NCBI GenBank assembly: GCA_965208905.1
Contig: OZ242365.1
Location: 1,312,001-1,376,000, forward strand
DNA length: 64,000 nucleotides
Origin: Nitrosopumilaceae archaeon
Lineage (GTDB): Archaea > Thermoproteota > Nitrososphaeria > Nitrososphaerales > Nitrosopumilaceae
Direction of reading: 5' to 3'
The position numbers were made by a program, and so were the translations under genes. Below the pieces are notes generated by a model that was given only the letters and a program-made list of their open reading frames with translations, was not told the origin of the DNA and made no database searches. Shown here piece after piece: positions 1 to 58,741 of the stretch; positions within the stretch are counted from its first letter, which is position 1, and every line of letters starts with the position of its first letter.

Positions 1-197
1 GATGTAAAACCATCCAGTGTGTTTGGTAGTTTGAATGGCTGTAGTATATATACCACCACCCTCTCCATATATTCGCCGCCAAACATATACTCTGATACGG
101 CCCTATTGTACACATACCGTACCACATGGCCCATGCGGTGCGCCCAATCTGCAAACAACTCATCCCTGTATAGCGGTACCCTGACTATCCGTATCAT
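1..197 (-). CDS. tnpB: TnpB/Cas12f-like nuclease, 5' part only (runs off window start); paralog of 32790..34145
   Basis: Manual translation from ATG at 197 gives MIRIVRVPLYRDELFADWAHRMGHVVRYVYNRAVSEYMFGGEYMERVVVYILQPFKLP..., colinear with the N-terminus of the 451-aa TnpB. Upstream DNA also aligns, ending in TATGTAATTCCC (297-308). Confidence 0.85.
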   Translation of the reverse strand, partial: MIRIVRVPLYRDELFADWAHRMGHVVRYVYNRAVSEYMFGGEYMERVVVYILQPFKLPNTLDGFT

Positions 198-494
198 AAT
201 GTGTTATACGGTATATGGTATTTAAGGGGATTGATGCAGTCACGAAATCTGTGTTGGGTCAGCATTGACTCTCAAAACAGAGGCTGTGTACTTTTGTATG
301 TAATTCCCCTTCTGTACTATCTACGTGAGTTGGCAACCACTGTAACATGTGTGAGTTGGGGCCGTAGTCGGAGGATCCGATCTTTGTAAGAATGAAAAAG
401 GGCAAAGGGTGATGGTTAGACTGCCAACCTTGTGGCGACCTGTATGGGGGTCATCCACTTGTTGGTTCCTTCGATGGTTATCCCGGCGGCCTAG

Positions 495-25691: not shown

Positions 25692-25782
25692 GGAACTGGT
25701 GCATCTTGGTGACCTAGTGTGTGGTGGTGCGTGGGTGACCTGAGTTGAATTACTCAAATTAAAATGAAATGAAAAGGGGGAT

Positions 25783-27027
25783 TTATGCTGTGGATTTAGT
25801 TGCGGCTTGAATGAGTGTCATCCATTTGTTGTTACCTTCAACGGTAATACCTGCGGCCTCTGCTGGGGTTATTTGATTCGGTAATCCCAAGTGGGGTTTT
25901 ACAAAATTGTGATATAATCGCAGTCCAGAGATTATGCCAGAGTCTTCACGCTTAAGGCCACGGCACACTTTCTCTCTATGTCGCAGTGTTGCTCCGTTGA
26001 ATGATTCCATTTGGTTGTTATGATGTATGCCGTCAAACGCCACATCATGAATGTGTTCTGTATCTTTGTGTAGGAAGTTCTTTGCCTTGTATTGTTGCTT
26101 CCATGCATGATGGAAGTTAGCCGCTTTATCACTGATTAATGTGGTTGGGACTTTGCCTGTTACTTTTTTGGCTTGTTTAAACATGGGTGCCACATCATCA
26201 TTGCCCTTGTGTTCTGCTACCATCTTGGCTATCCAGAAGCGTGTCTCACTGTCTAGCATGGCGAATAGGTACTTTCTATTACCCTTGATTTTCAGATATA
26301 ACTCATCGGTACGCCATTGTTCACCAACTTGGGGTTTAATCTTGTCAACGAAGGTTTCCATCAGTTCTGCGTATTGTTTGCCCCATCGTTGTATGGTAGT
26401 GTGTACTACTGTAATACCAACCATCTTGAGTGTATTGGCCACCTTCCGTGAGGATAATCCACTAAACAGGAGATCTACTGCTTGAGTGATATGTTCAGGT
26501 GATGCCTGCTTCTTTTCAAATCCTAGGTTTTGGATAAATCTCCTGCCACACGTCCTGCACCCGAACTGTTGTTTGCCACGCTTAATACCCTTCTTGATAA
26601 TATCAGTTGAGTCACAGAATTTGCATTTTGTAAGGTCAACAACCTTGATAGTAGTGGTAACTTCCTCTTGGACGGCTGCCCTCATTCGCTTGCTAATTTC
26701 GATTGCATGAGCGTGCTTGCATACAACACCCCTGTACATTGAATCGGGACAGGAACAAACCCATCCTGATTCTGTATGTATCACCTCATAGACTTTACTA
26801 GAGGATTGACTTCTTACAGTATAGGTTGTATCATCTATTCTGGTTATCTGATTAGGCTTGCCTGCTATCTGCGCACCCCGTGTGATTCTAGCCGCCTGAC
26901 CGGGGCTATGGTTCTTATGGGGTGATAAGATAGTAGGCTCAGAGTGCAATTTGCTCTTCATTGGGATGGTCGAGATCCCTCTGACTTTCTTTTCATCATC
27001 GCCATACTTTGTTATTGTTTTATTCAT
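25783..27027 (-). CDS. IS6/IS240-like DDE transposase with N-terminal SWIM finger and Zn ribbon
   Basis: CSCPD...CKHAHA, CKFC...CRTC, WRTDELY, LISDKA, NNQMES. Confidence 0.85.
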   Translation of the reverse strand: MNKTITKYGDDEKKVRGISTIPMKSKLHSEPTILSPHKNHSPGQAARITRGAQIAGKPNQITRIDDTTYTVRSQSSSKVYEVIHTESGWVCSCPDSMYRGVVCKHAHAIEISKRMRAAVQEEVTTTIKVVDLTKCKFCDSTDIIKKGIKRGKQQFGCRTCGRRFIQNLGFEKKQASPEHITQAVDLLFSGLSSRKVANTLKMVGITVVHTTIQRWGKQYAELMETFVDKIKPQVGEQWRTDELYLKIKGNRKYLFAMLDSETRFWIAKMVAEHKGNDDVAPMFKQAKKVTGKVPTTLISDKAANFHHAWKQQYKAKNFLHKDTEHIHDVAFDGIHHNNQMESFNGATLRHREKVCRGLKREDSGIISGLRLYHNFVKPHLGLPNQITPAEAAGITVEGNNKWMTLIQAATKSTA

Positions 27028-27105
27028 GTATGTTATTAACGGTACGGTTATTTAACTGTTGCCAAAACCGCACGGTTTTTATATAGACATGTCTGTAATG
27101 TAATA

Positions 27106-27294
27106 ATGACGCGATGGAAAAAGAACGAGACAGAGTTCAGAGTCAAGATGCACCATTATAAGAACAGGGACGGCTCCGGCACATCAAGTTGCCGGATTCC
27201 CAGTCCTATAATTAACTACATGGGAAAGCCCAACGAATTGATATTTGTGATCAATAATAAGACGGGGGAGGTAGTCGTAAGTGCAGGTGACTAA
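27106..27294 (+). CDS. Small protein, possible AbrB/SpoVT-like DNA-binding regulator
   Basis: 62 aa, RIPSPIINYMGKPNELIFVI pattern; divergent from the transposase and overlapping the MTase start. Confidence 0.55.
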   Translation: MTRWKKNETEFRVKMHHYKNRDGSGTSSCRIPSPIINYMGKPNELIFVINNKTGEVVVSAGD

Positions 27295-28342
27295 AACACT
27301 GGCGTATGAACCAGATGCCGTATCTGACTTTGACCTGCTTATGGGCGATTCGGCAGACGTACTGACACGATTTCCGGATAATTCGATCAACTGCACCGTC
27401 ACGTCCCCACCGTACTGGGGACAACGCGAGTATGACACAAAAGACAGCATCGGACATGAAGGTTCGTTTGATGAATACATGCAACACTTGATATGCGTGT
27501 TTGACCAAGTGTATAGGGTAACGGCAAAAGATGGGTCGTTGTGGCTCAACATCGGGGACAGATACCACAACAAGAATCTCATGGGTATGCCTTGGAGGGT
27601 CGCGCTTGCCCTGAAGGATCGGGGATGGATACTGCGCAATGACATAATTTGGAACAAGGTACGCATGACTCAGAGCGCAAAGGACAGGCTCCGTGACCTG
27701 CACGAGTATGTGTTTCACTTCGTCAAGAATCCAAAATATTACTATAACAGGAAGGCTATACTGATCAAGCACGACGAGAAACCCAAAAGACGTAACGGTA
27801 GACTTGTGTCAATCACAGGTACAAGTGGGATCCGTTACAGGGAACAGATACGACTGTCAACGCATCTCTCAGACACGGAAAAACAAAACGCAGTTACGGC
27901 ATTGGACAATACACTACACGACATGGCAGACGGCAAGATTGTGGATTTTCGCATGGCCATACGCGGACAACAAAGAACGTCACATGGTTCCAGTGAAAAG
28001 ATCAGTGGTAGAGCAAAAGAGATAGAAAAGTACGGATTCTATGTCATATCGCAGAGTTCGGAGGGATACATGCCTACCGACTTGTGGAGTATCGTACCGG
28101 AAGACACACACCGAAAAGACATACACTGCGCGGTATATCCAACTACCCTCTTGGAGATCCCGATAAAGGCGACATGTCCACCGGGAGGACTCGTACTAGA
28201 TCCGTTTACGGGAACTGGTACTACTATAGTGGCCGCCCTCAAGCACGGCAAGCGTGGTATAGGCATAGACGTGAGTAGCGCTTATCTTACACATGCAGAA
28301 AACAGGATAAAGACATTCCAGCAGACGGGACTAGAATGTTGA
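27281..28342 (+). CDS. Site-specific DNA methyltransferase, beta class (likely N4-cytosine)
   Basis: TSPPYW motif IV N-terminal; DPFTGTGTT motif I C-terminal. Confidence 0.92.
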   Translation: MQVTKTLAYEPDAVSDFDLLMGDSADVLTRFPDNSINCTVTSPPYWGQREYDTKDSIGHEGSFDEYMQHLICVFDQVYRVTAKDGSLWLNIGDRYHNKNLMGMPWRVALALKDRGWILRNDIIWNKVRMTQSAKDRLRDLHEYVFHFVKNPKYYYNRKAILIKHDEKPKRRNGRLVSITGTSGIRYREQIRLSTHLSDTEKQNAVTALDNTLHDMADGKIVDFRMAIRGQQRTSHGSSEKISGRAKEIEKYGFYVISQSSEGYMPTDLWSIVPEDTHRKDIHCAVYPTTLLEIPIKATCPPGGLVLDPFTGTGTTIVAALKHGKRGIGIDVSSAYLTHAENRIKTFQQTGLEC

Positions 28343-29176
28343 GACCGGATCACTTTTGTTTATTTTTGCCCCTATGATTTTTTTGGCGTCCTCATAGTTG
28401 ATGAGCAGGTTACCATCAACTGCAAACGAGAACAAGAGATCAACCCACCTCGTGGCCATAATCTTCTTTCTGCGTATGCGGTATCGTTTATCTTCTTCTA
28501 CAAGTGAGTACAGGAAAAACATGAATGTCTCAGTAGAGTAGGACTTGATCTCATGCGTTTGTATCTTGAATTTCGATGTGAACTGCTCCCACAACTCGTC
28601 CTGCATGACGGCTATATATGGCATCTTCCATTCGTCGAACAACTGTCCCTTGAAGATAAACTGTGGTAGAAATCCCTTGAAGGACGCAAGCGTATTTAAC
28701 CCAAATGTGTAACTTTTTTTGAGCCTATCATTTAACAGGTCATCTATCGCAGTCGCAAATGATCCCGTACCCGTTGTGGCATCGGACTGTATCTCTACCC
28801 CTATGAACCTGTTTGGGTCTCTGACCGGTGTTAATATCCAGTCAAGATTACCGTAATCAAATCTCTCGTTGTCTGTCTTCTTTGCCAGTTTGACTTCGTT
28901 GCGTGCGTCAGTTTGTACCTCGGATCCCCAAATAAAGTCTCGTATTTCGTGCAGTATCTTATAATCGTCCTCATAAAATCGCCGCGGGCAGATGATCCTG
29001 TTTCTGTCTCCCAGACATGCAGAACAGTTGCCGTATTTCGATGCAGTTCGGTTGGGCTTGTCACACTGGACGATGCGCCTGTCAAACGGACACCCATAAT
29101 CGCGGTTGCGAAAGCGGGCCTTGGCCACGTCTGAATCGAATTTTTCGCCAAACGCCTCCAACTGTCTATTTGTCAT
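28331..29176 (-). CDS. NotI-family restriction endonuclease
   Basis: Cys4 cluster CPF...CDK...GNCS...ICPRRF, then NLDWIL...VEIQS PD-(D/E)xK variant; convergent with the MTase. Confidence 0.8.
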   Translation of the reverse strand: MTNRQLEAFGEKFDSDVAKARFRNRDYGCPFDRRIVQCDKPNRTASKYGNCSACLGDRNRIICPRRFYEDDYKILHEIRDFIWGSEVQTDARNEVKLAKKTDNERFDYGNLDWILTPVRDPNRFIGVEIQSDATTGTGSFATAIDDLLNDRLKKSYTFGLNTLASFKGFLPQFIFKGQLFDEWKMPYIAVMQDELWEQFTSKFKIQTHEIKSYSTETFMFFLYSLVEEDKRYRIRRKKIMATRWVDLLFSFAVDGNLLINYEDAKKIIGAKINKSDPVSTF

Positions 29177-29644
29177 GAAATATGTTGACTGACTTGTTTA
29201 TAATATATCTTGAGAGTGTGTGATATAATTCCCGGGGATTCCTAGGTCACCCACGCACCACCGTACAACAGGTCACCAAGATGCACCAGTTCCTATTTCG
29301 TGCAGTATCTTATAATCGTCCTCATAAAATCGCCGCGGGCAGATGATCCTGTTTCTGTCTCCCAGACATGCAGAACAGTTGCCGTATTTCGATGCAGTTC
29401 GGTTGGGCTTGTCACACTGGACGATGCGCCTGTCAAACGGACACCCATAATCGCGGTTGCGAAAGCGGGCCTTGGCCACGTCTGAATCGAATTTTTCGCC
29501 AAACGCCTCCAACTGTCTATTTGTCATGAAATATGTTGACTGACTTGTTTATAATATATCTTGAGAGTGTGTGATATAATTCCCGGGGATTCCTAGGTCA
29601 CCCACGCACCACCGTACAACAGGTCACCAAGATGCACCAGTTCC
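28943..29644. repeat. Tandem duplication of 351 bp (28943-29293, 29294-29644) including REase 5' end, promoter and right TIR
   Basis: Copies appear identical by eye; creates truncated ORF 29273..29527. Confidence 0.92.
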
Positions 29645-32303: not shown

Positions 32304-32684
32304 TTATTCTGTAATGACTTTTTTGACAGACTCTATGACATTCATGTAATCATCATCCTTGCCACTTATGGTTACGATATATGCTATGTTTTCGGAGGGT
32401 ATGAGGACCATCTTTACCTTTTTATGAACTACTAACATATGCTCCATTCTTCCGATATGATCTTCAGAATCTCGACTTATATTTAGAATCGTGGATAAGA
32501 CAAAGAACTCGTTTTTTGCCTGTTCGCGACCCAACATGGGCTGAGTCCCTGACCGTATAAACCCGGTAACTGTACGCCCGTACTTGTTTATTGCGCCCAC
32601 ATATCGTATACTACTTGAAATATTCAGTATACTCTTGCATATCTTTGCTTGTTTGTCTACATTAGTGCTCTGTCTTTCTGACAT
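32304..32684 (-). CDS. Roadblock/profilin-like fold protein of the thaumarchaeal expanded type
   Basis: IRYVGAINKYGRTVTG...IGRMEHMLVVHKKV pattern. Confidence 0.6.
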   Translation of the reverse strand: MSERQSTNVDKQAKICKSILNISSSIRYVGAINKYGRTVTGFIRSGTQPMLGREQAKNEFFVLSTILNISRDSEDHIGRMEHMLVVHKKVKMVLIPSENIAYIVTISGKDDDYMNVIESVKKVITE

Positions 32685-32784
32685 GATGTAACCTTGCTTA
32701 TCAATGATAAGTATGTTTGCTATATGCTGATGTGATGTATCGTAAATGATGTAGAACCCATACGACTATCATCTCACCAATTAT

Positions 32785-34263
32785 GGGAATTATATAGATA
32801 AGAAAACAGCCACAGCTGCGCGCTTATCCCTTTTCTGACGACTTTTCTGTATGGAGTGGAGCATGGCGGGTGTTGGCTTGTAGCCCTCCTTGTGCCCCGG
32901 CCGTCTTAGGACGACGTTCCCCGCCGCCCGATACAGAATGTTCCAGGCGGCATTGACATCCGCGTGGAACACTCTGGTACAGTTAGTGCAAATGAACTTA
33001 TCGCGTGATATACGCGACTCTGAGTCTACGTGACCACACACATGGCACGTCTGGCTCGTATATTTGGCCGATGCCCCCAACAGCGGTATGTTGTGCATCT
33101 CACACCACTGCGCAAGCTTGCGCAGGAACTCCCCAACACGGTTCTCCCGCATTGAACGGTTCATGGCGCGTTTGTAATTCCCGCCATGGGTGGTCATATC
33201 CTTTACGGAGAGCGATTCGACCACGACTGCGTCCACACCATTAGTTATCTGCGCAATCGTCTGATTTATCGTGTTCGCGGCTATGTTGTTGGCCTTCCTG
33301 TATAGCCGCTTAATTTGGTCATTCAATACACACCACTTCCGGCCATGCCGTACCTTATGGTCACGAAGGTTCTTGAGCGCGTCAATCTCCCGCAGGATTG
33401 CTCTATGGCGTGTGTTGTGTATTGTAACATTGCCATTTGTGTCGACGGTAACTGCCAGGTGTTTGCCGCCCACATCAACACCACGTATTACACCTGTATT
33501 GCGGTGCGGCTCGACCGGGACGCGCACGGCGATATGTATCTCAAACATGTGGTCGGACGGCTTTGTATGCTTGTCCACCCGTTTGGTGACATCAACTATC
33601 TTGAATGAGCGCATGTCCCATGATACATCGATGGGCTTGGCGGTCTCCACCGTACCATATCCGGGGATATGTATGGTGTGCTCACCTTTTCGTACAGGCG
33701 GTGTAACGGAACAAAGTATGATGCGGCCGTCTTTGCGGCGGTACGGCGCGTGGTCTGAGTTGTCATCTATAACCCTTCTACATGCGGCGGAGGCATCCTG
33801 TATGGCGCCCCTGCCAAACGATGCGGGGCACTCGCGCAGCCATGTATGTTTGGCGCGCCACCCCGTAAGCTGCTTGAACATGCCATACTTTAATGCCCTC
33901 TTTGACGGCCCAAAATCATATGTATGGTAGTCATCGTCCAGCGTACCTGATGTAAAACCACCTAGTTTGCCCGGCAGTTTGAATGGCTGAAGGATGTCCA
34001 CTACCACCCTCTCCATATATTCGCCACCAAACAAATACTCTGATACGGCGCGGTTGTACACATATCTTGACGCATGATTCGTGCGGTGCGCCCACTCTAC
34101 AAACAACACATCCTTTCGTAGCGGTACCTTGACTATCCGTATCATGATGTGTAATACGGTATACTGGTATTTAAGGAAGAATGTGGCGCATAGGCATGAA
34201 ATCCATGGTGGTTTAGGCGTTAACCAAAACCTCCGCAGGGGTGTTCTAATCTATATAATTCCC
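32785..34263 (-). mobile_element. Non-autonomous TIR element carrying only tnpB, with 8-bp TSD
   Basis: GGGAATTATATAGAT (32785-32799) and exact inverse ATCTATATAATTCCC (34249-34263); CCAATTAT at 32777-32784 and 34264-34271. Confidence 0.92.
32790..34145 (-). CDS. tnpB: TnpB/Cas12f-like RNA-guided nuclease
   Basis: RuvC-I GVDVG, RuvC-II VVESL, Zn finger CHVC...CTNC, RuvC-III HADVNAAWNI. Confidence 0.92.
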   Translation of the reverse strand: MIRIVKVPLRKDVLFVEWAHRTNHASRYVYNRAVSEYLFGGEYMERVVVDILQPFKLPGKLGGFTSGTLDDDYHTYDFGPSKRALKYGMFKQLTGWRAKHTWLRECPASFGRGAIQDASAACRRVIDDNSDHAPYRRKDGRIILCSVTPPVRKGEHTIHIPGYGTVETAKPIDVSWDMRSFKIVDVTKRVDKHTKPSDHMFEIHIAVRVPVEPHRNTGVIRGVDVGGKHLAVTVDTNGNVTIHNTRHRAILREIDALKNLRDHKVRHGRKWCVLNDQIKRLYRKANNIAANTINQTIAQITNGVDAVVVESLSVKDMTTHGGNYKRAMNRSMRENRVGEFLRKLAQWCEMHNIPLLGASAKYTSQTCHVCGHVDSESRISRDKFICTNCTRVFHADVNAAWNILYRAAGNVVLRRPGHKEGYKPTPAMLHSIQKSRQKRDKRAAVAVFLSI

Positions 34264-34311
34264 CCAATTATCATACAAAACATCAAATATGTCTTGTAAA
34301 ACTTACTATGT

Positions 34312-34674
34312 ATGGATGCTTCAAGCGATATGCTAAAGACACTATATGGTCTTAATCCTGACATGTACAACATGGCATTTCAATTCCCACGCCTTCCACC
34401 CGCAGCACTGAAGAGGATTGGTATCAATAATGATACGTTTTATCGCCTAGGTGATGACATACTTTCTGCTGACTTTGAAACGTTTCGGGCAGCCTTTCTA
34501 GAGCGAGCCAATGCCCTCACTACTGGATCTGCAACAGTTCCTCCGGGCCATCCACTGAGTAGCGGACGCAGACTTTTAAACTCTGTAATTGCCGAAAGGG
34601 ACAAACTACAAAAGGAGAATCAAGAGTTGCGCGAACAACTCAAAGCTACCCCCGACACCAATACACCGCCATAA
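34312..34674 (+). CDS. Hypothetical protein with C-terminal coiled coil
   Basis: 120-aa ORF; ERDKLQKENQELREQL. Confidence 0.55.
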   Translation: MDASSDMLKTLYGLNPDMYNMAFQFPRLPPAALKRIGINNDTFYRLGDDILSADFETFRAAFLERANALTTGSATVPPGHPLSSGRRLLNSVIAERDKLQKENQELREQLKATPDTNTPP

Positions 34675-53356: not shown

Positions 53357-53730
53357 AGGGCTATCGGGATGATCCGGACGATGCCAATCCTCAAGACCTC
53401 CCGGGCCAGACTGACATACTTTATCGAGAGGCACGCCGCCACTGGTACCAAGATCTACACCGACGACAACGCGGCCTGCCGCAACCTGCTCAACCACGGG
53501 CCGTCGACTACTCGACAGGCGAGTACGTCCGGGGATGGGTCCATATCAACGGGATGGAGTCGTTCTGGGCCTTGCTACGGCGCGGCTATGACGGGGCGTT
53601 TCACCACTTGTCCAAGAAGCGCCTGCACCGGTACGCCAACAAGTTCACGGGGAGACTGCACGCCAGGGTCCTAGATATGATGGTCAGGAGTGTGGTCGGG
53701 AAGAGGCTGACGTATAGTCAACTGGTACAA
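53357..53730 (+). pseudogene. IS1595-family transposase remnant
   Basis: IYTDD, NGMESFWALLRRG...HHLSKKRLHRY, KRLTY split across frames. Confidence 0.82.
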
Positions 53731-53767
53731 GTCTACCTTTATAACCAATTGTGTGTTACACTTAAAA

Positions 53768-55471
53768 ATGAAAGTAAGTTTAATTATGCTCTTGCTGGCA
53801 GCGGTTGTTGCCACAGGAGCTACGATGACTAGCGCATACGCCCAACAGAACGGAGAGTCGATGGAAGCAATGGAGTCGATGGAAGCAATGGAAGCCCCAA
53901 TGCCCCCATCACCGTTTGCTCCCGGACAGTCAGTCTACTTCCCTCACGCTATGATCGGTCAGATAACCTCTAATCTTCCGCTGCCACCCTTCGACATGGC
54001 CAACGGCAACGCAGTCTTTGGGGTAATAATCCCAAACTTGGGTACTTGGATTCACCAAGAGGTATCCCCACACTTTGCGGACCCGTCGCTGTCGTTCAGA
54101 TATGTTACGCTGATTCTTAATGCCGGCTACGACGCGACGGCGCCTTATCACGAGACGGCCGTCGGCGTATACTCACGTATTGACAACCGCCCGGCAAGTG
54201 AATCTGCCGACAGCTACAACATCAACGTTGCATCCATCTATTCGGGATACCGGATGGGGATGGCGTTCGACCCAGACCGTGAACCGCAATGGCGGGCTAT
54301 GATGACTAACAATGGCTTGGACCCTGACGATGACACCGGATTGGACCTAGACTGCTCCCAGACGCACCAACTAGACTCGCCCATCGCCATAGGTAACTTG
54401 GCGAGCAAGTGTGTACTGGAGGCGCGGTGGTCTGATGGTTTCAACCACTTTGGGGATGAAACACCAGGACAACCATTCCGGGACACCACAGGCTATTCAC
54501 CCGTCAACTCGGCCAACGAGCTGGTTGATCCGTCCAGGTGGCAACCTCTGATAAAACAACTCAGAGAGGGCACTTGGGTATCTCAACAGTTCACCACGCC
54601 ACAGTGGGCCGTGACCGAGCCATACTCGGACATCGATCCGAGAGAGTTCAGAGCACCACCCCCGTTCGCCAGTGACCACGCCTTTATGGACGACTACAAG
54701 GCACAGGCTGACGAGGTACTGGCTGCAGTAGCAGGCCTGACGGACGAACAGAAGATGCTGGTGGAATACTTCGACAACAAGGCACGTGAGACACTGTTCT
54801 TCCCGGCTGTAGAGGCGCTCCCAAACACAATGGACTTTTGGCAACTGGACTTTATGTTGCACATAGCCCAGTTTGATGCAGGAATTGTTGCTTGGCAAGA
54901 GAAGGCCAGATACGATGCCGTGCGCCCTGTTACCGCAATAAACTATCTGTATAGTGATGAGATCGTTCAGACCTATGGAATAGGCGGAGACGGTCCGAGA
55001 TCCATCGCAGGCAGCGAGTGGTACAGCTACGCTAACACTGGAGATCATCCAGAGTACCCATCCGCTACTGCATGCTTCTGCGCGGCGCAAGCTCAAGCTT
55101 GGAGGAATTATCTAGGTGGAGATGAAATCCCAGACGTTACCCTACCCAACGGGGAGGTTGTCGACGGATTCGTCGGAATATTGCCCGCAGGATCGTCCAT
55201 ACACGAACCAGGAGTGACCCCTGCCAATGACGTAGTAGTAACCTATGACACTTGGACAGAATATGAGCAAGATTGCGCGGAAAGTAGGATATGGGCTGGT
55301 CTGCACTTTAGAGCGGCAGTAGAAGAGTCGCTCAATACGTGTAGCGATATAGGCAATGCGGCTTGGGACTACTTCTCAACACTGCTGGACGGGACAGCCC
55401 CGCTCAGACAGCCTGCTGAGAAACAAGACCAGGATCCGTTGCTGAACAGACCACACTTCACCGGACGATAA
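53768..55471 (+). CDS. Secreted vanadium-dependent haloperoxidase-like (PAP2) protein
   Basis: Signal peptide; WQEKARYDAVRP, HPEYPSAT, SRIWAGLHF. Confidence 0.8.
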   Translation: MKVSLIMLLLAAVVATGATMTSAYAQQNGESMEAMESMEAMEAPMPPSPFAPGQSVYFPHAMIGQITSNLPLPPFDMANGNAVFGVIIPNLGTWIHQEVSPHFADPSLSFRYVTLILNAGYDATAPYHETAVGVYSRIDNRPASESADSYNINVASIYSGYRMGMAFDPDREPQWRAMMTNNGLDPDDDTGLDLDCSQTHQLDSPIAIGNLASKCVLEARWSDGFNHFGDETPGQPFRDTTGYSPVNSANELVDPSRWQPLIKQLREGTWVSQQFTTPQWAVTEPYSDIDPREFRAPPPFASDHAFMDDYKAQADEVLAAVAGLTDEQKMLVEYFDNKARETLFFPAVEALPNTMDFWQLDFMLHIAQFDAGIVAWQEKARYDAVRPVTAINYLYSDEIVQTYGIGGDGPRSIAGSEWYSYANTGDHPEYPSATACFCAAQAQAWRNYLGGDEIPDVTLPNGEVVDGFVGILPAGSSIHEPGVTPANDVVVTYDTWTEYEQDCAESRIWAGLHFRAAVEESLNTCSDIGNAAWDYFSTLLDGTAPLRQPAEKQDQDPLLNRPHFTGR

Positions 55472-57481: not shown

Positions 57482-58741
57482 TTAGGATGTTGACTTTGCA
57501 GCTGCTTGAATCATGGTAAGCCACTTGTTGTCACCTTCAACGGTGATACCTGCAGCCTCGGCGGGGGTTATCTGGTTTGGGAGTCCAAGGTGTGGGCGTA
57601 CAAAGTTGTGATACAATCGCAATCCAGAGATTATGCTAGAGTCATCCTTCTTCAAACCACGGCACACTTTCTCACGGTGTCGTAGTGTTGCCCCGTTGAA
57701 GGATTCCATTTGGTTGTTATGATGTATGCCATCAAAGGCAACATCATGTATATGCTCGGTCTCTTTGTGCAGAAAGTTCTTTGCTTTATACTGTTGTTTC
57801 CAAGCATGGTGAAAGTTGGCTGCCTTGTCACTAATTAATGTGGTTGGAACTTTACCCGTTACCTTCTTGGCCTGTTTAAACATCGGTGCTACGTCGTCAT
57901 TGCCTTTGTGTTCGGCTACCATCTTGGCTATCCAAAACCTAGTCTCTGAATCAAGCATTGCAAATAGATATTTGCGGTTACCCTTGATTTTCAGGTATAA
58001 TTCATCTGTACGCCACTGTTCACCGACTTGTGGTTTAATCTTGTCAACAAAGGTCTCCATAAGTTCACCATACTGTTTACCCCAATTTTGTATGGTAACA
58101 TGAGTAGTCTTAAGTCCAGTCATTTCAAGGCTGCGGGCAACCTTCCTACTAGATAAGCCGCTAAACAGTAAATCTACAGCCTGTGTAATCTGTTCAGGTG
58201 TGGCTCTCTTGCGAGTGAACCCGACATTATGAGTGAACCGCTTAAGGCAGTCTATACACTTGAACTGCTGAACTGGACCTTTCTTGAACTTTCGTATACC
58301 ACATTTCACTACATTGGTTGACTCACAAAATTTACACTTGGTAAGGTCAACCTGCTTGATAATGATTTTAGGTACTTCCTGTTGTACCGCTTTTCTTATT
58401 CGGCGGCTTATCTCGACTGCATGAATATGCTTGCATATTACACCACGATACATATGATCCGGGCATGAACAAATCCAGCCATGCTCGGTGGATAATACCT
58501 CGTATACTTTATCGGATGATTGGGAACGTACCGTGTATGTCAGGTCGTCTATTCTCGTGATTTGGTTAGATTTACTGACTATTTGAGCGCCCCGTGTTAT
58601 GCGGTCATTGGTGGTCTGTCCAGTCACATTGCCAACTGATATATTGTATAATGGTGTAATATGCTCAGAGTGCAATTCGCTCGTCATTGGGGTTGCTGCC
58701 CCTCTGGCTTTTGTTTTCATCATCGCATTTGTTATTGTCAT
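57482..58741 (-). CDS. IS6/IS240-like DDE transposase with SWIM finger (paralog of 25783..27027)
   Basis: Catalytic half nearly identical to the first copy; CSCPD...CKHIH. Confidence 0.85.
   Translation of the reverse strand: MTITNAMMKTKARGAATPMTSELHSEHITPLYNISVGNVTGQTTNDRITRGAQIVSKSNQITRIDDLTYTVRSQSSDKVYEVLSTEHGWICSCPDHMYRGVICKHIHAVEISRRIRKAVQQEVPKIIIKQVDLTKCKFCESTNVVKCGIRKFKKGPVQQFKCIDCLKRFTHNVGFTRKRATPEQITQAVDLLFSGLSSRKVARSLEMTGLKTTHVTIQNWGKQYGELMETFVDKIKPQVGEQWRTDELYLKIKGNRKYLFAMLDSETRFWIAKMVAEHKGNDDVAPMFKQAKKVTGKVPTTLISDKAANFHHAWKQQYKAKNFLHKETEHIHDVAFDGIHHNNQMESFNGATLRHREKVCRGLKKDDSSIISGLRLYHNFVRPHLGLPNQITPAEAAGITVEGDNKWLTMIQAAAKSTS

Follow-up and report, generated by a model that had tools for sequence, protein, structure and literature searches.

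How does a tnpB gene move in a genome that holds no TnpA? Archaeal genomes often contain dozens of tnpB genes without this transposase, and their mode of movement had been puzzling. The question is raised by a 64,000-nucleotide stretch of the genome of a sponge-associated Nitrosopumilaceae archaeon (contig OZ242365.1, positions 1,312,001 to 1,376,000; hereafter the window), in which an intact tnpB gene lies within a 1,479-bp element (window 32785-34263) that has terminal inverted repeats (TIRs) and is flanked by an 8-bp target-site duplication (TSD). We give a probability of roughly three in four to the reading that this cassette is a non-autonomous transposon with IS1595-type (ISNwi1-like) ends that carries nothing but a functional tnpB and the accompanying omegaRNA, that it is moved in trans, and that its nuclease uses a transposon-adjacent motif (TAM) and a guide taken from the TSD and flank. 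The subgroup name ISNwi1-like and its end consensus follow ISfinder and are presumed to apply to the cassette. For at least five TnpB families, the window genome answers the question of movement with TIR/TSD cassettes of the DDE type.

A tnpB cassette with inverted repeats and a target-site duplication

The cassette comprises the following features.

32777..32784, unstranded: TSD, right-end copy (3′ side of tnpB); reads ATAATTGG on the tnpB strand, the first 8 nt of the predicted guide
32785..32808, unstranded: right-end TIR; 15 bp perfect (32785-32799), 23 bp with two mismatches
32790..34145, minus strand: tnpB, 451 aa; the sole long open reading frame (ORF), with RuvC D-E-D and zinc finger intact
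34168..34175, minus strand: TATA-like A/T-rich box, approximately 27 nt upstream of the tnpB start codon; putative promoter element
34240..34263, unstranded: left-end TIR, from the repeat search and the family consensus
34264..34271, unstranded: TSD, left-end copy, from the repeat search and the sequence

The arm GGGAATTATATAGAT at 32785-32799 recurs as its exact reverse complement at 34249-34263, and the two mismatches between the arms of the extended 23-nt repeat fall at positions 16 and 21. The 8-bp direct repeat CCAATTAT borders the cassette on both sides, and a repeat search of the window recovers identical inverted and direct repeats. The G+C content of the cassette is 0.50-0.57, compared with approximately 0.38-0.41 in the flanks. 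The original prediction had looked to a related genome for an empty site with a single 8-mer, and such a site is present in a sister genome of the same genus (G005), where flanks 97% identical to those of the window cassette abut around the single 8-mer CCAATAAT, with one single-nucleotide polymorphism and no element. Because this empty site exists and 15 further copies with the same ends are found in the window genome, the cassette lies far beyond chance. It is a real, recently mobile insertion that duplicated 8 bp at this location.

Of the cassette family, the G005 genome contains one 82-nt match at 73% identity and nothing more. The same genome has 10 IS1595 matches, eight of them with open frames longer than 300 aa, without a copy of the cassette family. 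Because the copies in the window genome differ mutually by up to 21% and G005 has none, the family may have entered the window genome already diversified, or it may have been lost from G005.

The tnpB product matches the Pfam families OrfB_IS605 and Cas12f1-like_TNB (PF07282 and PF01385 above their cut-offs) and scores 126.9 bits with the NCBIfam model guided_TnpB (NF040570, cut-off 100), while remaining far under the cut-offs of the exception models IS607_TnpB and IS200_TnpB. In alignments to the solved TnpB proteins 8iaz and 9yyg, the RuvC residues D (GVDVGG), E (VVVESL) and D (HADVNAA) are kept, and both pairs of the CxxC...CxxC zinc finger are retained, with the catalytic E located 57 residues before the first zinc-finger Cys. 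The stop codon (32790-32792) is inside the right TIR, five bases from the element end. The combination of TIR, 8-bp TSD and intact tnpB with its stop codon in the TIR, which had been proposed from the letters of the window, is therefore borne out by the sequence, the repeat search, the Pfam and NCBIfam matches and the 8iaz alignment. Among cassette ORFs of at least 100 aa, tnpB is the only one with a family match, and no DDE_Tnp_IS1595 transposase is encoded inside. An A/T-rich box placed similarly to that of the cassette is found in another TnpB family of the window genome.

Sixteen copies held under purifying selection

The window genome is closed (one contig, 2.21 Mb, 99.6% complete) and contains 16 copies of the cassette family including the window copy, to which the others are 79-95% identical. 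The consensus TIR of the family is 24 bp. Flanking 8-mers match at seven or more of eight positions in 13 of the 16 copies (12 perfectly), and every TSD is different in sequence. The expectation that other copies of the TIR would be bordered by 8-bp TSDs, and that intact IS1595 elements would share the same ends, was thus confirmed at these 13 sites and by four intact IS1595 elements described below.

A tnpB ORF of at least 449 aa is preserved in 14 of the 16 copies. The median ratio of nonsynonymous to synonymous change (dN/dS) over the 91 pairs of these intact copies is 0.21, and therefore the TnpB protein kept working during the divergence of the copies, which are held under purifying selection. 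A second member of the family lies at the edge of the window.

1..316, minus strand: second copy, left end, cut by the window start (genome 1310837-1312308); element bases 1-308, TSD copy 309-316

Another copy, at genome 1972621-1975198, is split by an insertion of approximately 1.1 kb, and its outer 8-bp TSD is intact. Fragments of approximately 165-205 bp at genome 1493807-1494010, 2197132-2197325 and 1694379-1694542 consist of the right TIR and the predicted omegaRNA region only (82-85% identical), and these may represent either truncated family members or independent guide RNA modules.

Shared ends point to a probable IS1595 partner

The window genome has 75 matches to PF07282, the TnpB TNB domain. 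Searches of the closed genome gave 0 matches to the Y1 TnpA of IS200/IS605 elements (PF01797) and 0 matches to the serine recombinase of IS607 elements (PF00239). Four intact IS1595-family transposons of 2.1-2.8 kb are present, at genome 675271, 1043578, 1211856 and 1770047, with transposases that match PF12762 and PF12760; family names were assigned by the NCBIfam model NF033547 (cut-off 75) and PF12762, and the two transposases scanned with the former score 173 and 177 bits. All four transposons start GGGAATTATA and are bordered by 8-bp TSDs, and the first 10-13 nt of the cassette are identical to their ends. The terminal 12-13 nt of the right-end TIR are common to all IS1595-type elements of the window genome.

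Seven more autonomous elements of the same end type, also with 8-bp TSDs, were found in G005 (four) and in a further genome, G004 (three). The TIRs of two of the G005 elements match the consensus TIR of the cassette family at 21 of 24 positions. None of these 11 autonomous elements (four in the window genome, four in G005 and three in G004) contains a tnpB gene.

The proposal that the ends and the 8-bp TSD fit the IS1595 family is upheld by the four elements here and by three sister genomes that encode IS1595-family transposases. Because the ends and TSD length of the cassette are those of IS1595-encoding elements and the genome carries no Y1 or serine TnpA, the best reading appears to be that a DDE transposon family (IS1595) captured TnpB and that the cassette is probably moved in trans. 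We file the cassette as an IS1595 derivative and not as an insertion sequence (IS), because there is no transposase gene inside.

Among 61 genomes of the family Nitrosopumilaceae, the 13-nt terminus is present in six and an IS1595 transposase in nine. An IS1595 transposase accompanies the termini in each of the four genomes that have at least two of them, a co-occurrence that lends weak support because the genomes are related. Five further genomes of the genus were checked, and IS1595 was found in all of them.

An IS1595 transposase remnant near 53.5 kb of the window had also been predicted, and it is recovered with PF12762 at 38.2 bits.

53497..53649, plus strand: IS1595 transposase remnant, C-terminal part of the DDE domain (genome 1365497-1365649)

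The NF033547 match here, to the C-terminal end of window 53554-53829, reaches 23 bits and is below the cut-off. The remnant is not a functional partner of the cassette.

Some IS1595 transposons carry cargo of another kind. The autonomous elements at genome 1043578-1046414 and 1770047-1772736, and two in G005 (L092/L093), have a passenger gene whose product joins an N6/N4 DNA methylase and an HNH nuclease domain, and some of these methylase-HNH elements in G005 are interrupted by another IS with a 335-aa helix-turn-helix (HTH) protein. A second, small kind of IS1595-family element (1.2-1.3 kb) with ends that begin CGCTCAT and with 8-bp TSDs occurs in G005 (L095/L096), G006 (L100-L102) and G009 (L106/L107).

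The same packaging in other TnpB families and genomes

Two further TnpB families of the window genome agree with the cassette family over the terminal 12-13 nt and differ from it in the inner TIR. They are family B (445 aa), whose tnpB stop codon likewise lies five bases from the element end, and family F (470 aa). IS1595-type ends are thus found on three TnpB families of this genome, and a different TIR on two others. The capture of TnpB and its movement in trans, as originally predicted, are supported by these findings, except that not one lineage but several TnpB families are involved.

The arrangement extends to other genomes. In G006, tnpB genes approximately 65% identical at the DNA level lie between the same termini, with 8-bp TSDs at three of three sites. 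A genome from a different genus (G015) contains seven tnpB elements of 1.9-2.1 kb with these termini, six of which have perfect 8-bp TSDs; their undamaged tnpB genes encode 543-583 aa, and one of the seven elements is interrupted. That genome has one IS1595 gene, without recognisable ends. A single tnpB cassette with the same termini is present in G002. A related-locus search among the genome contigs returned one locus only.

The different TIR, 25 nt long and beginning GGTTCCTCCCGCAA, is found on TnpB family 2 (approximately 520 aa, 14 members) and family 3 (approximately 464 aa, 10 members), which also have 8-bp TSDs. Examples of these cassettes lie at genome 60267-61884, 239554-241169, 28035-29550 and 1677879-1679392. 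There are 75 termini of the GGTTCCTCCCGCAA type in the window genome, some of which bound miniature elements of 355-585 bp. The ends of TnpB families 1 and 5 are inverted-repeat-like in appearance.

A search for the transposase that acts on the GGTTCC ends of families 2 and 3 found none among the candidates considered. The genome has 13 ORFs with PF13610 (IS240/IS6-like DDE transposases), and no such termini lie within approximately 1.6 kb of them. An rve-type transposase beside one GGTTCC end proved to belong to a separate IS inserted into the cassette. A 1.5-kb element with both GGTTCC ends gave no Pfam match in its two longest ORFs. The GGTTCC ends may resemble those of the IS6 family. The family 3 cassette at genome 805876-808440 is interrupted by an IS with an HTH and rve transposase, a free copy of which gene lies at 2031703-2032716.

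A quick TnpB tree, midpoint-rooted and with long-branch warnings, indicates that TIR types do not follow TnpB clades. This distribution hints at repeated exchange of ends among TnpB lineages, and several captures are a lead and not a result because of the speed, rooting and warnings of this tree.

A one-sided motif beside the target-site duplication

Cassettes were oriented by tnpB and their target sites rebuilt before the flanks were tabulated. Two features of the window copy are defined by this comparison.

34272..34275, minus strand: TAM-like flank; TATG on the tnpB strand, with the G at 34272 directly 5′ of the TSD
32765..32784, minus strand: predicted guide source, the TSD plus adjoining flank that would be reached by read-through past the right end; placed according to where the TAM-like motif lies

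The flank 5′ of the left TSD has the consensus A-T-N-G in the cassette family. The base at -1 is G at 13 of 13 family sites (binomial p = 4.5e-9 versus 22.8% G). Of these 13 sites, nine have A at -4, ten have T at -3, and in ten the TSD starts with T. At the mirrored position on the other side, G is found in 3 of 13 sites. When same-clade relatives in G006 and G015 are included, G occupies -1 in 23 of 24 sites. Other TnpB families have motifs of their own. The family 2 sites have TA at -2/-1 in nine of nine, T at -3 in six of nine and C as the first TSD base in eight of nine, giving TTA|C, and family 3 sites have TT at -3/-2 in seven of seven and G at -1 in four of seven.

The motif lies on one side only, differs from one TnpB family to the next, is missing beside tnpB-less transposons and immediately precedes, on its 5′ side, the sequence found after the right end. 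As such properties are expected of a TAM where the TSD and flank supply the guide, the motif is probably a TAM. The flank motifs would place the start of the guide at the first or second TSD base. At the window copy, the predicted guide begins ATAATTGGTGAGATG, and the empty allele has TATG ahead of the guide match.

The strongest competing explanation accepts movement by IS1595 in trans and takes the flank motif to be an asymmetric preference of transposases acting on unlike ends, with TnpB and its RNA serving as cargo or in another role such as regulation or competition, and not in the targeting of empty sites. Since inner TIRs differ between TnpB families, different transposases could serve them, and because family B, which has the same termini, lacks a conserved base at -1 (G in one of five sites), the motif could reflect the preferences of particular transposases. 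TSD positions 1-4 are also A/T-rich, as is typical of transposase preference. However, the 11 autonomous IS1595 elements have G at 5 of 22 flanks, which is background, and the motif is strictly one-sided. DDE transposases usually yield a symmetric target consensus. Moreover, the motif sits exactly where a TAM must lie if the guide begins after the right end, and the family 2 motif TTAC equals a known target and TAM of IS608, as given in a section of a 2026 review (PMC13565253). On balance we consider this explanation improbable, though it retains more weight than the others examined below.

A predicted omegaRNA that ends at the last element base

The following RNA features are predicted at the right end.

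32785..32984, minus strand: predicted omegaRNA scaffold; shares sequence with the 3′ end of tnpB and extends as far as the last element base
32909..32929, minus strand: conserved 8-bp stem with a 5-nt loop at 32917-32921 (tnpB-strand sequence GGGAA, of which GGG is the same in all 21 sequences)
32796..32829, minus strand: terminal hairpin, its end 11 nt short of the element end; stem sequence varies by family and position is kept

The 3′-terminal 200 nt are more conserved than coding alone requires, with the synonymous difference falling from 0.33-0.48 in mid-gene to 0.22-0.28 at the 3′ end, and the 3′ region has a folding z-score of -3.0. An alignment (A1) of 21 sequences from four genomes was analysed with RNAalifold, which recovers the 8-bp stem, a long-range 5-bp helix and an inner helix, for a total of 18 pairs. 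Relatedness among the sequences inflates the figures that follow: 96% of cells are paired, versus 36-50% when partners are slid, and the covariation score is matched by 0 of 500 shuffles. Eight of the 18 pairs have changed on both sides. These results support a conserved, covarying RNA structure at the 3′ end of tnpB. The terminal hairpin ends 11 nt from the element end in six of eight folded representatives and 15 nt from it in the other two, both from G015. An Rfam search of 32500-34500 with E values up to 5 gave four chance-level matches, all under their gathering scores.

The GGGAA loop is complementary to the final five element bases (UUCCC), approximately 133 nt downstream, and these segments form a candidate pseudoknot. 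If this pseudoknot exists, the scaffold would end at the last element base, like that of TnpBs of the IS605 type, and the right TIR would serve both the transposase and the RNA. The distance between loop and terminus recalls the right-end element RNA (reRNA) of the IS607 type, for which a portion of Yoon et al. (PMC10711439) describes a pseudoknot between approximately -130 and -3.

It had been suggested that an omegaRNA takes its guide from the TSD and flank and could target empty alleles. This idea gains indirect support because a one-sided TAM-like motif lies exactly 5′ of the left TSD and a predicted, covarying RNA structure ends at the last element base.

A model for cassette movement and retention

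In the model that we favor, an IS1595 transposase supplied in trans would bind the common terminal 12-13 bp and thereby move the cassette. The omegaRNA scaffold would overlap the 3′ end of tnpB, with the right TIR as the 3′ end of the RNA and the guide derived from TSD and flank, and the conserved G of A-T-N-G 5′ of the left TSD would be part of the TAM. A vacated or never-occupied allele, which consists of the TAM, one TSD and the flank, would then be the exact cut target of the TnpB encoded by that copy. Cutting of the empty allele would favor restoration or retention of the element by recombination.

Several observations weigh against this model. Matching flanking 8-mers are absent from 3 of the 16 copies. 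TIR identity between the cassette and IS1595 elements of the same genome does not exceed the terminal 10-13 nt, and the closest TIR match sits in the sister genome without the cassette. The family B sites noted above depart from the expected motif. Both sides of the candidate pseudoknot are invariant, which puts it beyond the covariation test. A run of four U residues within the right TIR might stop archaeal transcription short of the flank. Contigs from four sponge metatranscriptome runs, which are blind to RNA ends, strand and level, cover only 32898-33237 and 33565-33779 of the element; none spans the right end, from which nothing follows.

If the transposase lacks a flank preference and 13 of 13 copies nonetheless lie beside the TAM-like motif, then either copies elsewhere have been lost, through excision without RNA-guided restoration, or TnpB helps to choose the site. 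The second option underlies another explanation, in which TnpB and its RNA help to select or make the insertion by holding the target at the TAM or by making a staggered cut, so that the TSD and TAM adjacency would be products of TnpB action instead of later selection. The adjacency of every one of the 13 copies to a motif for which the presumed transposase shows no preference favors this idea, as do the excess of TnpB genes (75) over the few transposases and the presence in G015 of seven cassettes with one IS1595 gene that has no recognisable ends. It is nevertheless quite unlikely. IS1595 elements without TnpB have this same 8-bp TSD length and the same termini, and a retention filter explains the pattern without a new activity. 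Known TnpBs also cut approximately 15-21 nt from the TAM, farther than 8 nt.

That the cassette is an ordinary tnpB-only element of the IS200/IS605 type (IS1341 group), moved by a Y1 TnpA and with ends that are merely inverted-repeat-like, is extremely unlikely and already contradicted by the TSDs: the protein is a TnpB and insertion occurs beside a short specific motif as in IS605, but variable 8-bp TSDs at 13 sites, a documented empty site, a 24-bp family consensus TIR, termini in common with IS1595 transposons and a genome that holds no Y1 or serine transposase all speak against an origin among IS200/IS605 elements, which lack TIRs and TSDs according to passages in PMC13565253 and PMC3627910.

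Beyond the favored model, we raise tentatively a more general proposal, which we regard as possible and rather doubtful, that TAM recognition has become coupled to the life of DDE transposons. Either the TnpB-omegaRNA complex would help to select the integration site, or cut-and-paste excision would be so common that, by means of RNA-guided homing, only copies inserted immediately 3′ of a TAM persist. TnpB-omegaRNA modules of this archaeal lineage would then swap freely between two or more kinds of DDE ends. If this proposal were true, the flank 5′ of the left TSD would spell the TAM of each family (A-T-N-G, TTAC and TATTG), and genomes full of 'orphan' TnpBs without any TnpA would be explained.

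Relation to known systems

TnpB in DDE-type inverted repeats, including solo copies mobilised in trans, is already reported: portions of Altae-Tran et al. (2023, PNAS; PMC10691335) describe six DDE-transposase-associated TnpB branches, all with inverted terminal repeats, and solo TnpBs between the same ends that are taken to be mobilised in trans. The 2026 review (PMC13565253), in the section concerned, lists ISL2, IS630 and IS1031 as DDE partners of TnpB and calls such cases rare. We found no literature on TnpB with IS1595 ends; 'IS1595' occurs 0 times in the main text of PMC10691335, whose supplements may bear on this point. The choice of IS1595 as partner, the strictly trans arrangement and the register of TAM and TSD appear to be new.

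In common with the DDE-associated TnpBs of PMC10691335, as far as its main text describes them, the cassette has TnpB between DDE inverted repeats, the tnpB 3′ end near the transposon end, and solo copies. It differs in that its partner is IS1595, with no two-gene element among the 11 autonomous elements examined, and in that the evidence for the partnership is shared ends, not gene neighbourhood. Furthermore, several TnpB lineages here use the same ends, and a one-sided TAM-like motif lies beside the 8-bp TSD.

The cassette also resembles Fanzor1 and Fanzor2* elements, which are non-autonomous, have TIRs and TSDs and encode nothing but a TnpB-family nuclease (sections of PMC3627910 and PMC10711439). 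Yoon et al. (2023; PMC10711439) report, in the portion relevant here, that the Fanzor RNA scaffold includes the TIR and TSD and that the guide comes after the TSD. A further likeness to those elements is an RNA that runs through the TIR, which for the cassette is predicted, and a TSD region at the 5′ end that adjoins the TAM or, here, the TAM-like motif. Whereas the Fanzor guide starts past the TSD, the cassette motif would put the start at, or within one base of, the first TSD base. The cassette is archaeal and its TnpB has the canonical layout, not the Fanzor rearrangement of the catalytic E, so that membership among Fanzors was rejected on the basis of the host and the position of E 57 residues before the first Cys. 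The prokaryotic parallel to Fanzors within TIRs that the original prediction drew is supported, and it is not new, since the main text of PMC10691335 already draws it for other DDE families. The cassettes offer a prokaryotic counterpart to the way in which Fanzors became passengers of eukaryotic DNA transposons.

The likeness to ISNwi1-like IS1595 elements with passenger genes consists of ends that begin GGGAATTAT, 8-bp TSDs and a tolerance for non-transposase cargo; the cassette differs by the lack of a transposase gene and by a cargo made up of an RNA-guided nuclease and a predicted RNA. With the tnpB-only elements of the IS200/IS605 type (IS1341 group), the cassette has in common that tnpB is the sole gene, that an omegaRNA (predicted here) overlaps the gene 3′ end and extends to the element boundary, and that a short TAM or TAM-like motif is adjacent. 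It is set apart from them by its TIRs and TSDs and by the lack of TnpA in the genome. Prokaryotic tnpB-only elements were stated to lack TIRs and TSDs in the pertinent passage of Bao and Jurka (2013; PMC3627910). Membership in IS607 was rejected because there are 0 PF00239 matches and because a TIR and TSD are present.

These cassettes constitute a natural experiment on a question posed in a section of PMC13565253, namely how a transposon could benefit from an RNA-guided homing nuclease when it leaves behind a double-strand break as well as a TSD. With one-sided flank motifs, genome sequence by itself would suffice to deduce TAMs and guide registers, and the motifs point to compact nucleases (approximately 450 aa) with defined scaffolds.

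Other repeated sequences in the window

Two of the 13 IS240/IS6-like DDE ORFs of the genome (356-501 aa) lie in the window, at 25897-26319 and 57602-58018 (genome 1337897-1338319 and 1369602-1370018). Copies are 66-82% identical over the ORF alone and have no recognisable shared ends. A stretch of approximately 3.6 kb at window ~25692-29293 is repeated exactly, once, near genome 1.85 Mb. Adjoining this duplicated stretch are two identical IS1595-like termini (GGGAATTATATC...) with the same flank, at window 29222-29233 and 29573-29584, and a third such terminus is located at genome 1854858.

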